DNA of 11,882 bases from the IMG/VR virus record IMGVR_UViG_2548876958_000016; one strand, given 5' to 3'. A program made the translations under genes and the position numbers. The notes below the pieces were generated by a model that worked only from the letters and a program-made list of their open reading frames with translations, was not told where the DNA came from and did no database searches. Positions 6,025 through 9,489 of the stretch are shown in pieces. The DNA is from a virus. Its lineage: Duplodnaviria; Heunggongvirae; Uroviricota; Caudoviricetes. Position 1 is the first letter of the stretch, and each line of letters begins with the position of its first letter.

Positions 6025-6249
6025 ATGCCGATGAAATTTGATGAGATATTAAAACAGCGTGATAAATACCATGCTGACAACATGGAGACGATGAGCATCA
6101 ATGATTACCGCGCATTCCTGGAGACGGGCGCACTGATTGAAAAGGATCAGCATGGTTTTGTGAGATGTGCTCTATCCGGTGAAATGCTGGCGGTAAATCC
6201 TGAACAGATAGATGCATTGATAGAATTTCTGAAAGAGATCAGAGACTGA
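6025..6249 (+). CDS. Hypothetical protein (74 aa), monocistronic between terminators
   Basis: SD AGAGGA (6011-6016), 8-nt spacer, ATG 6025. Translation MPMKFDEILKQRDKYHADNMETMSINDYRAFLETGALIEKDQHGFVRCALSGEMLAVNPEQIDALIEFLKEIRD. No family recognised. Confidence 0.55.
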   Translation: MPMKFDEILKQRDKYHADNMETMSINDYRAFLETGALIEKDQHGFVRCALSGEMLAVNPEQIDALIEFLKEIRD

Positions 6250-6268
6250 GCCAGCACACAGCACACAT

Positions 6269-6291
6269 AGCCGGAGCAATCCGGCTTTTTT
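6269..6291 (+). terminator. Intrinsic terminator (copy 2 of the repeated hairpin)
   Basis: AGCCGGA (6269-6275), loop GCAA, TCCGGCT (6280-6286), T-run to 6291. Confidence 0.7.
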
Positions 6292-6300
6292 GCGCCCAAA

Positions 6301-6339
6301 AAAAGCCCGATAAGGTCAGAGGGTTCTTATCGGGCTTTT
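6301..6339. terminator. Bidirectional terminator-like hairpin (14-bp perfect stem)
   Basis: AAAAGCCCGATAAG (6301-6314) pairs perfectly with CTTATCGGGCTTTT (6326-6339) across an 11-nt loop. The A-run on one side and T-run on the other make it usable from either strand. Sits in tandem after copy 2. Confidence 0.6.
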
Positions 6340-6416
6340 GCATATGAGGTTTTTGGATGCACTGGCGTTCGTGATCGAGATAATCATTTCATAATTTGCA
6401 ACATAACTAAATATCA

Positions 6417-6477
6417 TTGCATAAAATGCAATTCTTATTATAATCAGGACTGGATAAACATCCAGTCCTGATTTTTT
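6417..6477 (+). promoter_or_regulatory. Candidate late (capsid-operon) promoter with a promoter-proximal hairpin plus T-run
   Basis: Perfect -10 TATAAT (6439-6444) with possible -35 TTGCAT (6417-6422, 16-bp spacer). An 11-bp inverted repeat TCAGGACTGGA/TCCAGTCCTGA (6443-6453 and 6460-6470) followed by TTTTTTT (6471-6477) lies between the -10 and the first late gene (ATG 6501). Confidence 0.45.
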
Positions 6478-6500
6478 TAGTCGAAGAGGAATTTCTTACT

Positions 6501-6707
6501 ATGGCTGAAGAGAAAAAAGGCGGTGTTTCGGTGTACATAAGCCCCGAAATCGTGGAGGTGCTCAAGCAGCGCCACAAAAAAAACTATGAAGCTGGCGTTG
6601 CGGCTGGACTGGATCCGCTGATGACGCCGGAGCCGTCGATAGGTTCACTTGTACGCTCTTATTTACTTGCGGCGCTTGGGATGCATAAAAATTATGGGGG
6701 TGAATAA
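6501..6707 (+). CDS. Small protein (68 aa), first gene of the capsid operon; possible RHH/CopG-like fold
   Basis: Translation MAEEKKGGVSVYISPEIVEVLKQRHKKNYEAGVAAGLDPLMTPEPSIGSLVRSYLLAALG...: a beta-strand (VSVYIS) followed by two helices resembles a ribbon-helix-helix, but this is tentative. Stop overlaps the capsid start (TAATG at 6705-6709). Confidence 0.5.
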   Translation: MAEEKKGGVSVYISPEIVEVLKQRHKKNYEAGVAAGLDPLMTPEPSIGSLVRSYLLAALGMHKNYGGE

Positions 6708-7762
6708 TGGCAGGCAAAGCAACGGCACTTAACACTAACCAGCTTTTCATGTACCTGAATCGCGGGGATATTGCGGATTTTAAATTCAGCCCTCTGTTTA
6801 CCACGCTGTTTTTCCCGAACGTGGCGACATTCAACACGCAGGACATCATGTTAGATAACCTGGATATTGAAGAAGTCACTATGTCGGCGTTTTGTTCGCC
6901 TATGGTTGGCAGCCAGGTTCAGCGCGATAAAGGGTACGAAACCAGCATTATCCGCCCTGGCTACATGAAGCCAAAACACGAAATCGATCCATTAAAAACA
7001 ATAATGCGCATGGCTGGAGAAGATCCGGCACAGCTTAACGATCCTACCTACCGCCGTATGCGCCTGATTACTGGCAACATGCGCCGCCAGATAAACGCCA
7101 TTAAGGCACGCGTTGAATGGCTGGCGGTGAATGCGGTAACGACCGGAAAAAACATCATTGAGGGCGAAGGCATAGAACGCTATGAAATCGACTGGAAGAT
7201 ACCGGAAAAAAACATCATAGAGCAGGCCGACGGTAAAAAATGGTCTGAGCAGGATAAAGACATACACGACCCAATATATGACATTGAACTATACGCAGAT
7301 CAGGCAGGTTGCCCCGCCAACGTCATGATTATGGGCGTTGATGTATGGCGCATGTTACGCAGCTTTAAAAAATTCCGTGAACTGTACGATCTCTCCCGTG
7401 GTTCAGAATCCGCCGCAGAGCTGGCATGTAAAAACCTGGGCGAAGTGGTGAGCTTTAAAGGCTATCTTGGTGATCTGGCCCTTATCGTCTATTCCGGCAA
7501 ATACACTGACAGCGACGGCACAGAAAAATATTTCCTTGAGCCTGATTTGCTTGTCCTGGGCAACACCAACAATAAAGGGCTGGTGGCCTATGGTGCGATT
7601 ATGGATCAGGACGCAGTAAGAACGGGGGCAACGCAAAACATGTACTACCCGAAAAACTGGATTGAGGACGGAGATCCGGCGATTGAGTACGTGCAGACGC
7701 ACAGCGCACCGCAGCCGGTTCCGGCAGATATTCGCAAATTTGTTACTGTCAAAATTGCTTAA
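6707..7762 (+). CDS. Major capsid protein, lambda gpE family (351 aa)
   Basis: SD GGGGG 6 nt upstream. Extended similarity to lambda E as I recall it: FKFSPLFTTLFF (lambda FKFDPLFLRLFF), RPGYMKPKHEIDP (TPGYVKPKHEVNP), DPTYRRMRLI (DPAYRRRRII), VSFKGYLGDLALIVYSGKY (VSYKGMYGDVAIVVYSGQY), LGNTNNKGLVAYGAIMDQDA (LGNTQARGLRTYGCIQDADA), YPKNWIEDGDPA (YPKNWVTTGDPA); length is close to lambda E (341 aa). Confidence 0.9.
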   Translation: MAGKATALNTNQLFMYLNRGDIADFKFSPLFTTLFFPNVATFNTQDIMLDNLDIEEVTMSAFCSPMVGSQVQRDKGYETSIIRPGYMKPKHEIDPLKTIMRMAGEDPAQLNDPTYRRMRLITGNMRRQINAIKARVEWLAVNAVTTGKNIIEGEGIERYEIDWKIPEKNIIEQADGKKWSEQDKDIHDPIYDIELYADQAGCPANVMIMGVDVWRMLRSFKKFRELYDLSRGSESAAELACKNLGEVVSFKGYLGDLALIVYSGKYTDSDGTEKYFLEPDLLVLGNTNNKGLVAYGAIMDQDAVRTGATQNMYYPKNWIEDGDPAIEYVQTHSAPQPVPADIRKFVTVKIA

Positions 7763-7773
7763 CGGGGGATTCT

Positions 7774-8109
7774 ATGGACACTCCATACATTGAGTTATTT
7801 GCAGGCAGTCAGCAGGTCGCCACGACGCTGGTACATTTTGCCGCTGATGCTGGCGTTATTCAGGAATTTACCCCGCTGATGCTGGCGGACAATGGCGAGT
7901 TTAAGCCGTGGGATGGTCAGGAATCTGGCAAGGCTGTTTATCTGACTTCGTATCCTGTGGACACGTCAAAGCAGAAATCAGCACAGTGTTACAAGACGGG
8001 GATATTCAATATTGCCGCCGTTAACTGGCCTGAGAGCGTCGACACCGATGCGAAAAAATGCGCCGCCTTTGCGGGTTCCGGCGTATCCGTTCAGCCGCTG
8101 GCCCGATAA
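7774..8109 (+). CDS. Head decoration protein, lambda gpD family (111 aa)
   Basis: SD GGGGGA upstream. TPLMLADNGEFKPWDGQ (lambda TPLMLDTSSRKLVAWDG), YKTGIFNIAAVNWPE (YKSGTFRYEDVLWPE), KKCAAFAGSGVSV (KKRTAFAGTAISIV); length matches gpD (110 aa). Gene order is E then D, the reverse of lambda. Confidence 0.85.
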   Translation: MDTPYIELFAGSQQVATTLVHFAADAGVIQEFTPLMLADNGEFKPWDGQESGKAVYLTSYPVDTSKQKSAQCYKTGIFNIAAVNWPESVDTDAKKCAAFAGSGVSVQPLAR

Positions 8110-8121
8110 GCAGGGGGAACG

Positions 8122-8535
8122 ATGGCAACGAATGAAAGCATCATGACGCTACCGCTGGCGAGTAAATTTAAAGCCGAAGCGCGGGCAATGGCTGACAGAG
8201 GTTTATCAACCTATGAGGCCGTATATCAACTAAACAAACTGGAAGAGCAGGACAAGCCGCGCGCTGATGCGATTATGGCGCTTCATGAGCATAAAGACTA
8301 TCAGCCGCTGTTACGTGCAATGGCAAACGTGCCATGTATTAGCGTCGATAATGCTCGTGAAATCCTGAACATGACCATAGAGCAGGAGCGCCCAAAGGTT
8401 GCACCAGAGCTTACCGCAGCCTTTGAAAACTTTATGGACATGCACAGCCCGCAAGCCGTATCAGCTGGCATGGCATACGATGGCAGAAACCAGGGCGATG
8501 ACGGCGACATCGATCGCATACTGAAAACCATCTGA
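8122..8535 (+). CDS. Hypothetical protein (137 aa), last gene of the capsid operon
   Basis: SD AGGGGGA (8112-8118), ATG 8122. Translation MATNESIMTLPLASKFKAEARAMADRGLSTYEAVYQLNKLEEQDKPRADAIMALHEHKDYQPLL... No family recognised. Its position after the capsid and decoration genes suggests a morphogenesis or packaging accessory role. Confidence 0.6.
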   Translation: MATNESIMTLPLASKFKAEARAMADRGLSTYEAVYQLNKLEEQDKPRADAIMALHEHKDYQPLLRAMANVPCISVDNAREILNMTIEQERPKVAPELTAAFENFMDMHSPQAVSAGMAYDGRNQGDDGDIDRILKTI

Positions 8536-8581: not shown

Positions 8582-8640
8582 TATGGACCCGTTACGGGGC
8601 GGCGACCTCGCGGTTTTTCGCTATTTATGAGCCTTTTCAG
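8582..8640 (+). other. cos site 1: lambda-type cosN with a divergent cosB-side flank, oriented toward the small terminase gene
   Basis: GTTACGGGGCGGCGACCTCGCGGTTTTTCGCTATTTATGA (8591-8630) matches, with one mismatch, my recollection of the lambda cohesive-end region (GGGCGGCGACCT then CGCGGGTTTTCGCTATTTATGA); the 12-nt cohesive-end sequence sits at 8597-8608. After TTTATGA the sequence diverges from lambda cosB. Confidence 0.75.
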
Positions 8641-8741: not shown

Positions 8742-9284
8742 ATGAAATCGCACCTGATGAACAAAAAAAACATGGCGAAAAGCTGCCGTGTAAGTGCGAC
8801 AGCGTTCGACAAGTGGGGAGTGACTCCCGTTGAACGTAAAGGCCGTGAGGCGTTTTACGATGTTGCCAGCGTGATAGACAATAGGGTTAACAATGCAATT
8901 AGCCAGCTTACAAACGACAAAGGCGATATTGATGATGATGAACTCTTACGAGTCAGGATCAGATTACTGACAGCACAGGCGGAGGCGCAGGAACTTAAAA
9001 ACGAGCGCGATCGCGGTGACGTGATTGATACTGAGTTTTGCCTGTACGCGCTTTCAAAGCTGGCGAGTCAGATTTCATCAATCATGGACAGCCTCCCGCT
9101 TACTATGCAAAGGAGCTTCCCACAGATTACCCACGCCATGCTGGATAGGCTTAAAAGGGAAGTGGTTAAAGCCTGTAATGCCAGTGCCAGAGTTGCCGAC
9201 AACCTCCCACAGATACTGGCTGATTACTTGAAAGAAACAACCGGAAACGTACCGGAAAAGTTGCTACAGAAGAAAGGCGAGTAA
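8742..9284 (+). CDS. Terminase small subunit, lambda Nu1 family (180 aa; true start may be ATG 8757)
   Basis: Strong similarity to lambda Nu1 as recalled: LLTAQAEAQELKNERDRGDVIDTEFCLYALSKLASQISSIMDSLPLTMQRSFP (lambda LTRAQADAQELKNARDSAEVVETAFCTFVLSRIAGEIASILDGLPLSVQRRFP) and N-terminal MNKKNMAKS...FDKW (lambda MEVNKKQLADIFGASIRTIQNW). The C-terminal region that interacts with the large subunit in lambda looks conserved; the N-terminal DNA-recognition region is more diverged. Confidence 0.85.
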   Translation: MKSHLMNKKNMAKSCRVSATAFDKWGVTPVERKGREAFYDVASVIDNRVNNAISQLTNDKGDIDDDELLRVRIRLLTAQAEAQELKNERDRGDVIDTEFCLYALSKLASQISSIMDSLPLTMQRSFPQITHAMLDRLKREVVKACNASARVADNLPQILADYLKETTGNVPEKLLQKKGE

Positions 9285-9299
9285 CAGACGCGCAATTAT

Positions 9300-9489
9300 T
9301 GAACAAAACTGAGAAACGACATGAAAGCGTCATAAATCGCCATTTTAGATGATTACCGTGTCGTTTCTTTTTATTGTGTATCTATTTAAAAACAAATAGT
9401 TATGTTCGAGAAGTACCGACATGCTTTTTCCAGAAAAATTTTCATAAACAGATAAAAACCGCGAGGTCGCCGCCCCGTAACGGGCCATA
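9300..9489 (-). other. cos site 2: inverted lambda-like cos (cosN plus cosB-like flank) on the minus strand, pointing back toward terS
   Basis: Reverse complement of 9454-9489 equals the site-1 core. Read on the minus strand it continues GGGCGGCGACCTCGCGGTTTTTATCTGTTTATGAAAATTTTTCTGG..., then CATAACTATTTGTTTTTAAATAGATAC, AAAAGAAACGACA and GTCGTTTCTC. These resemble lambda TTTATGAAAATTTTCCGG, the I1-region CATAACTTAATGTTTTTATTTAAAATAC and R-site-like GTCGTTTCC elements, from memory. Confidence 0.75.

Follow-up and report, generated by a model that had tools for sequence, protein, structure and literature searches.

What controls the capsid-like genes of a phage-inducible chromosomal island (PICI) when a consensus -10 hexamer runs straight into a long inverted repeat and a run of T just ahead of the first of them? 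The locus lies in a virus sequence of 11,882 nucleotides (IMG/VR record IMGVR_UViG_2548876958_000016), hereafter called the window, and the window is an EcCICFT073-type PICI adjoining phoQ. An earlier note, made from the letters of the window, had described TATAAT, an inverted repeat and T7 before the first late-type gene, and had proposed that the late genes are conditionally gated, either by the promoter, terminator and antiterminator logic of lambdoid late operons or by an operator, for example for a PerC-like protein. The arrangement itself was confirmed. RNA from 6400-6480 folds at -27.1 kcal/mol, compared with -7.2 ± 2.3 kcal/mol in shuffled sequences (z = -8.75; 0/200), the hairpin ranked first of 9 sites in a terminator scan of the window (2.9 expected), and the part of the region from 6299 onward, which includes it, is present in 602 of 5426 complete E. 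coli genomes (~11%). The repeat was given as 11 bp; it is indeed there, with perfect arms of 14 nt. As to the gating, a high-scoring LexA/SOS box over the predicted start of transcription points to a gate of the operator type, and antitermination found no support. We give an even chance to the reading that the element is a LexA operator over the start, nested in an insulating terminator-like palindrome.

A LexA-like box in the core of the palindrome

Candidate boxes were scored with a symmetric weight matrix and a Lewis-type heterology index, both built from 18 E. coli boxes (PMC3009722 Table 4). The best 20-mer of the 11.9-kb window is the core of the palindrome, GACTGGATAAACATCCAGTC, with a score of 18.7 bits and a heterology index of 7.4; both values fall within the leave-one-out ranges of the 18 published boxes (3.9-28 bits and 0.6-12.8). 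It is a CTG-N10-CAG dyad with an A/T-rich centre, as in the LexA operators of Gammaproteobacteria, and it begins 4 nt after the invariant TATAAT of the predicted promoter. Its half-sites, CTGGAT and ATCCAG, are identical to those of the ruvA operator CGCTGGATATCTATCCAGCA, and the two boxes differ only in the uncontacted centre, where the four nucleotides are AAAC or GAAC here and ATCT in ruvA. In 20 Mb of sequence from a first-order Markov model, a score as high as this turned up once, and for perfect palindromes drawn at random with a loop of 4 nt its probability is 1.6-4.3e-4. Since the chance stays this low among random palindromes, the hairpin nature of the site does not explain the LexA match.

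The comparative set consisted of 91 loci with 22 palindrome haplotypes, taken from the E. coli genome collection and IMG/VR. The CTG-N10-CAG dyad was kept in 22/22 haplotypes, with scores of 16.2-22.4 bits and heterology indices of 5.2-9.2. In the Salmonella cassettes, the flanks of which are unalignable with those of E. coli, the box is GACTGGATGAAAATCCAGTA and reaches 20.3 bits. Variants in which ATCCAG is changed to ATACAG have lost a stem pair, yet they are closer to the LexA consensus, with scores of up to 21.9 bits. In the per-position footprint, the half-sites, the -10, the -35 with the overlapping direct repeat, the T-run and the Shine-Dalgarno sequence were invariant, and variation was concentrated in the loop, which is the centre of the box, in the flanks of the box and in the outer stem (6445-6449, 6467-6470). 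This pattern is as expected of a LexA site and is consistent with LexA rather than proof of it.

The predicted start of transcription

TTGCnn-16-TATAAT is the only promoter conserved across all haplotypes. The TTGC of the -35 and the TATAAT are essentially invariant at a fixed spacing of 16 bp in 42 E. coli haplotypes and in the Salmonella versions, and this geometry places the expected start within the left arm of the palindrome, at about 6449-6453. The promoter scan found one other promoter-like site upstream, the weak TTCATA-18-TATCAT (6388-6417); its -10 (TATCAT, 6412-6417) is not conserved and reads CATCAT or TTTTAT in several relatives. Transcripts from the predicted start would retain no more than 5-7 of the 14 nt of the arm, and their predicted fold is a 5-bp hairpin only, which ends 7 nt before the U-run and is not a terminator. 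Since the predicted start lies inside the left arm, transcripts of the local promoter would be unable to form the terminator hairpin, and the lambda-like promoter/terminator/antiterminator logic is for this reason unsupported. On prediction, the transcript of the regulated promoter contains no terminator on which an antiterminator could act.

The window's operon of four genes is equivalent to c1498-c1501 of E. coli CFT073, and published RNA-seq of that strain agrees with an independent promoter for these genes at the position of the hairpin. When cultures were shifted from 23 to 37°C, with no phage-inducing treatment, c1498, c1499, c1500 and c1501 changed significantly, with log2 values of 2.2, 2.1, 1.5 and 1.2, respectively. 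The changes of the upstream primase, c1496 and ssb genes (log2 0.2-0.4) and of the downstream c1503/rpp (log2 0.33) were not significant.

A separate observation concerns the leader of the local transcript. For the segment 6472-6513, the predicted fold (-10.9 kcal/mol, z about -2.5) pairs the U-run and UUUCUU with the Shine-Dalgarno sequence and with the first codons, which are rich in purines; this block is invariant in E. coli. The mRNA of c1498-c1501 in CFT073 is 2- to 5-fold higher at 37°C than at 23°C, and a thermosensor-like leader or temperature-dependent silencing of these genes is conceivable.

The palindrome as a possible terminator

As RNA, the palindrome has the form of an intrinsic terminator: a stem of 14 pairs (6 G-C), a 4-nt loop and an immediate U-tract. 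Across the haplotypes the hairpin ranges from -9.4 to -21.7 kcal/mol, and T5-T7 was found in all of them. Compensatory changes were observed at three stem pairs (C-G/U-A; U-A/G-C/C-G with a U-G intermediate; A-U/G-C), and the covariation score was above 500/500 shuffles; yet 8 of the 14 pairs never vary. Since some of the compensating positions lie outside the 20-bp box, selection on pairing is favoured. In Salmonella, a 1-nt insertion in the right arm is absorbed as an internal loop, and the lower stem and U5 persist (-14.1 kcal/mol). The hairpin is also more than a terminator for the upstream gene, the case that the earlier note had set against its own proposal: a separate terminator of that gene lies at 6269-6291, and a further hairpin follows at 6301-6339. 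An insulating role toward upstream transcripts is plausible but secondary.

A proposed mechanism and its alternatives

We infer the start site, LexA binding, SOS inducibility and the termination of upstream transcripts from the sequence, and the proposed mechanism joins them as follows. The sigma-70 promoter TTGCAT-16-TATAAT would fire from about 6449-6453, and the 20-bp operator with ruvA-identical half-sites would lie directly over this start. LexA would dampen the promoter in undamaged cells, and the SOS response, which is the same signal that induces lambdoid helper prophages, would release it. RNA arriving from upstream, that is from the replication/perC module, would fold the palindrome into an intrinsic terminator, by which the operon would be insulated, and transcripts of the local promoter, which lack most of the 5' arm, would pass through. 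One palindrome of 32 bp would thus do two jobs, as a LexA operator over the start in the form of DNA and as a terminator for upstream transcripts only in the form of RNA. We put this double role forward tentatively and rate it below an even chance.

Several observations weigh against the mechanism. The whole cassette is conserved, and the conservation of the box alone would fit any protein that reads CTGGAT-N4-ATCCAG. Boxes of the CTGG type such as ruvA are weak operators, and because c1498-c1501 are already expressed at 37°C without inducer in the CFT073 RNA-seq, any LexA repression would be leaky. One recombinant island (L010) keeps the promoter and has lost the right half of the box. On the side of the terminator, the constraint is weak: 54 of the 91 loci, the common O157 haplotype included, have at least one mismatch in the outer stem, only a minority haplotype has all 14 bp paired, and nowhere does the region vary more than in this outer stem. 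In addition, two other terminator-like hairpins (6269-6291 and 6301-6339) lie within 210 bp upstream. Finally, a literature search for start mapping, LexA binding or SOS expression in EcCICFT073-type islands found none.

Transcriptomes of EDL933 under ciprofloxacin and under multiple conditions were at first taken as evidence against SOS induction and were then set aside, as they concern a different island. CP-933C of EDL933 is a capsid-forming island (HK97 capsid, protease and portal), the upstream region of which has neither this promoter nor this palindrome and contains, in their place, GAACAAC iterons like those of the int-alpA spacer in inverted orientation. Since its promoter and leader are different, these transcriptomes do not bear on the box.

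Should LexA not bind here, an ordinary insulating terminator is what remains, and we regard it as somewhat unlikely that the palindrome is just that, with a non-functional LexA-like sequence and a TATAAT promoter that is unregulated or under the control of the upstream direct repeats. Such a plain intrinsic terminator would agree with the canonical anatomy, the compensatory changes at three stem pairs, the lower stem and U-tract that Salmonella keeps despite its insertion, and the expression of c1498-c1501 without an SOS inducer. However, it would require a LexA matrix match to arise by chance in a palindrome (about 2-4e-4), and it is at odds with half-sites that never vary next to a remaining stem that varies freely and is often mismatched, with stem-breaking ATACAG variants that improve the LexA match, and with the two terminators that already precede the hairpin. 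A promoter-proximal terminator overridden by an antiterminator, either a Q-like protein of a helper phage or the AlpA of the island, with the start upstream of the hairpin, is very improbable. A terminator near a promoter is the layout of lambdoid pR'-tR' and also of the AlpA targets of P. aeruginosa, and a weak upstream site (6388-6417) does exist; its -10, however, is not conserved, whereas the TATAAT abutting the hairpin is essentially invariant. The c1498-c1501 genes respond as a unit in CFT073 cultures that received no phage-inducing treatment, and neither similar phage DNA nor an Rfam family was found. A sensitive blastn search of 50,697 phage records gave no match that would indicate a phage origin of the region. 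The Rfam search of the whole window gave no family at E ≤ 1, and that of 6200-6560 at E ≤ 10 gave only sub-threshold noise (MicC, 26.7 bits versus a gathering score of 90; AsxR/AgvB, 16-18 versus 56-63). The AlpA of the island matched only 8c3t, an 'AlpA family phage regulatory protein' (PDB sequence search, E = 2e-6), which is uninformative on antitermination.

The palindrome could instead be the operator of another dimeric protein, such as an autoregulating product of the 68-aa open reading frame (ORF), RgdR/DUF4222, PerC, or a helper-phage or host protein, and we consider this unlikely. The invariant CTGGAT-N4-ATCCAG would suit such a protein, and the cassette also has two conserved dyad repeats, TTGCA-N5-TGCAA, which the same or another protein may bind. 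The 68-aa product is predicted to consist of an extended N-terminus and two helices, which would fit a DNA-binding protein of small size, and it resembled one of the beta-alpha-alpha kind; against this, it has no Pfam match and no significant fold match (best E = 1.8). A ribbon-helix-helix autoregulator was considered for it and rejected, as there was no Pfam match and the single-sequence model (predicted local distance difference test, pLDDT, 74.5) had no significant fold match in the PDB. PerC, the candidate of the earlier note, is an unlikely reader, since several E. coli islands pass from ssb straight to the same cassette without perC, and the Salmonella islands are also without it. The 1-nt insertion in the right arm of the Salmonella palindrome shifts the outer half-sites relative to the core and disfavours a reader of the full 32 bp, and the invariant core is already accounted for by LexA.

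Distribution and exchange of the cassette

E. coli CFT073, Nissle 1917 and ATCC 25922 are among the strains with the island, and the cassette was also found in islands of Salmonella enterica with unrelated flanking sequence. In BLAST comparisons there is a break in coverage at about 6291-6299; in some genomes the match is confined to the perC side, in others to the sequence from 6299 onward. From there the cassette contains the hairpin at 6301-6339, two direct repeats, the promoter, the palindrome and the T-run. The hairpin at 6301-6339 has A7 (6294-6300) on one side and T4 at its other end, and is a bidirectional terminator-like element at the left edge of the mobile regulatory cassette. A small RNA from a minus-strand promoter ending at this hairpin was considered and rejected, as no -35/-10 pair was convincing by eye and none was found in the scan.

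The two direct repeats, of 19 nt each and 30 bp apart, occur as two copies where 0.02 are expected and nowhere else in the window, and both TTNCA-N5-TGCAA repeats are kept in the E. coli and Salmonella cassettes. RgdR/DUF4222, AlpA and a helper protein are candidate binders of the TTGCA-N5-TGCAA repeats.

The island L010 is a natural recombinant: at its positions 1640-1700, compared with 6436-6455 of the window, the promoter cassette continues up to the CTGG in the left arm and is joined to the leader of an HK97-type capsid-forming PICI. This junction and the second, mosaic one at 6291-6299 indicate that the cassette is exchanged as a module between island types, and that one crossover fell inside the palindrome. 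Scans of the GTDB representatives with the capsid protein and with the DNA pattern gave nothing relevant; the 81 pattern matches were chance matches in unrelated taxa. Within the window, GGACTGGAT of the left arm (6447-6455) recurs exactly inside the 68-aa ORF (6606-6614), where the right arm could pair too; this second copy is probably due to chance.

Comparison with known systems

The box resembles the CTGG-type operators of E. coli ruvAB (and cho) in its CTG-N10-CAG dyad, in a score and heterology index of the same range, and in adjoining the -10. It differs from ruvA-type operators in being nested in a palindrome with 14-bp arms and a T-run and in lying in a mobile island, and here the LexA site is a predicted one. 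LexA boxes just downstream of the -10 are also known from the SOS promoters of colicins and other mobile elements. Similarly, the predicted box here overlaps the start of a strong-looking promoter on a mobile element; it is, however, a single box of the weak type, not a tandem, and a terminator-like architecture is added.

With the lambdoid pR'/tR' region and its Q protein, and with the AlpA system of P. aeruginosa, the locus shares a strong -10, a nearby hairpin with a U-tract and structural-type genes downstream. Unlike in pR'/tR', the hairpin here overlaps the end of the -10, the predicted start lies inside the hairpin, and there is no similarity to phage late regions. The AlpA targets of P. 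aeruginosa have their binding element between -35 and -10, with the terminator beginning 26 or 54 nt past the start; this 26/54-nt geometry was not found here.

A functional parallel may be operon I of the pathogenicity islands found in Staphylococcus aureus (SaPIs), a packaging and interference operon that is reported to be under LexA control (Ubeda et al. 2007). Both are cases of a phage satellite in which an operon of the morphogenesis type is served by a separate promoter with an SOS box (predicted here), and expression would in both be coupled to the signal that induces helper prophages. However, the phylum and the LexA motif are different. The c1498-c1501 genes are not the packaging operon, since islands in which they were replaced by cargo still transfer, and in CFT073 they are not co-regulated with the packaging gene rpp/c1503.

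On the current view, helper-induced AlpA is the only switch by which Gram-negative PICIs are turned on, and alpA itself is reported to be insensitive to DNA damage. If the proposed mechanism is correct, the capsid-like operon would be insulated from the replication module and tied directly to the SOS signal of the host, in contrast with alpA, the SOS-independent master switch of the island. A LexA-controlled promoter would add a second, host-driven input beside helper-induced AlpA and would parallel SaPI operon I. In the PICI literature that was searched, the regulation of the c1498-c1501 operon and a terminator or LexA site there are not described; an SOS-gated promoter cassette common to the PICIs of E. 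coli and Salmonella, as predicted here, has thus not been described before. It would give a concrete handle on the c1498-c1501 genes of the prototype island. These genes are also the region where cargo is inserted in engineered PICI 'drones', and their regulation therefore matters for such designs.

Island context and other features

The features of the region and of the downstream operon are listed in Table 1. The genes of the window are arranged in the order int, alpA, icd-like, DUF4222/RgdR, RepA-type helicase, ssb, perC, a 74-aa ORF and the hairpin region, followed by the 68-aa ORF, the lambda E-like capsid homologue, the D-like homologue, the 137-aa ORF and cosN, and at the end by the Nu1-like rpp gene, an inverted cosN, a 93-aa ORF and phoQ.

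Table 1. Coordinates of the regulatory elements and of the operon in the window
Feature	Position	Strand	Remark
Upstream hairpin, 14-bp arms AAAAGCCCGATAAG / CTTATCGGGCTTTT	6301-6339	.	Invariant in 10/10 aligned variants
Direct repeat 1, ATCATTTCATAATTTGCAA, imperfect TTNCA-N5-TGCAA dyad	6383-6401	+	Candidate regulator site
Direct repeat 2, ATCATTGCATAAAATGCAA, perfect TTGCA-N5-TGCAA dyad	6413-6431	+	Overlaps the -35; near-invariant in footprint
-35-like hexamer TTGCAT	6417-6422	+	TTGC invariant; 16-bp spacer to the -10
Consensus -10 TATAAT	6439-6444	+	40/42 E. coli haplotypes, plus Salmonella
Inverted repeat, perfect 14-nt arms, loop AAAC (4 nt)	6442-6473	+	RNA hairpin, -21.7 kcal/mol
Left arm AATCAGGACTGGAT	6442-6455	+	Overlaps last 3 nt of TATAAT
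LexA/SOS-box-like 20-mer GACTGGATAAACATCCAGTC, CTG-N10-CAG	6448-6467	.	About -3 to +17 of the predicted start
Right arm ATCCAGTCCTGATT	6460-6473	+	Runs into T7
T7 run, U-tract of the terminator-like hairpin	6472-6478	+	T5-T7 in relatives; 23 nt before first gene
Shine-Dalgarno AAGAGG	6484-6489	+	Block 6484-6503 invariant in E. coli haplotypes
ATG of first gene	6501-6503	+	Start of 68-aa ORF
Transcription unit of four genes	6501-8535	+	Equivalent to c1498-c1501 of CFT073
68-aa ORF, first gene	6501-6707	+	ATG at 6501
Lambda E-like capsid homologue	6707-7762	+	c1498-c1501 block
D-like decoration homologue	7774-8109	+	c1498-c1501 block
137-aa ORF	8122-8535	+	Scaffold/protease C-terminal similarity
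Lambda cosN cohesive-end sequence GGGCGGCGACCT, exact copy 1	8597-8608	+	
Lambda cosN cohesive-end sequence GGGCGGCGACCT, exact copy 2	9464-9475	-	

The earlier note had called the downstream genes a capsid operon. The name holds in that they are lambda E-like, D-like and scaffold-like; it needs qualifying in that for c1499, the capsid homologue of the prototype island, no phenotype was found and in that c1498-c1501 can be replaced by cargo, as in the engineered drones, with transfer still occurring. Deletion of c1499 or c1500 did not relieve phage interference, and c1503/rpp is the interference and packaging gene of the prototype island. The match of the 137-aa ORF to head maturation protease families (phrog_53, E = 1.7e-10) falls in their C-terminal part, which has the scaffolding role in lambda C/Nu3. 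With this ORF, E-like, D-like and scaffold-like genes are all present in the island, even though full-size helper capsids are reported to package it. The inverted cosN pair flanks the Nu1-like rpp/terS-like gene (8742-9284) and corresponds to cos1/cos2 of EcCICFT073; since lambda cosN sits at these places (8597 and 9464), the hairpin as a part of cos was ruled out. A 79-aa E. coli protein (P0023) with a PerC family annotation (PF06069) is also similar to the 68-aa ORF, with 58% identity over 78% of this ORF, and the double match points to a fusion, or to an ORF that was mis-called, in some variant of the island.

Other LexA-like or repeated sequences were observed outside the palindrome. The spacer between int and alpA contains two LexA-like 20-mers, at 638-657 and 749-768, which score 15.2 and 16.5 bits; at ≥15 bits, 0.02 such matches are expected in a window. 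Both were judged to be probably not LexA sites: the one at 638-657 is absent from CFT073, and the one at 749-768 is part of a conserved motif, CTG[GT]TTTTTTTATACA[CT]T, with CAT/CAC where LexA needs CAG. The same spacer carries an iteron block, GAACAACGTGGAACAACCACGAACAA (GAACAAC iterons, 672-701), which reappears inverted just upstream of the HK97 capsid operon of the EcCIEDL933-type capsid-forming island (L187, 3190-3220). That type of island may drive its late operon through a binder of the GAACAAC iterons, possibly AlpA; the island type of the window uses a different cassette. In 16 loci with a different integrase (L019, L052, L068 and 13 others), a LexA-like box, AGCTGTACAGAAAACCAGTA (17 bits), was found ~6 kb upstream of the palindrome, with a variant, AACTGTACAAAAAACCAGTA, of 19.6 bits. 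This box lies ~60 nt before a TATAAT and adjoins AAAACC repeats, and the TAG that it overlaps may be the stop codon of int; the region may be an arm-type site rather than an operator.

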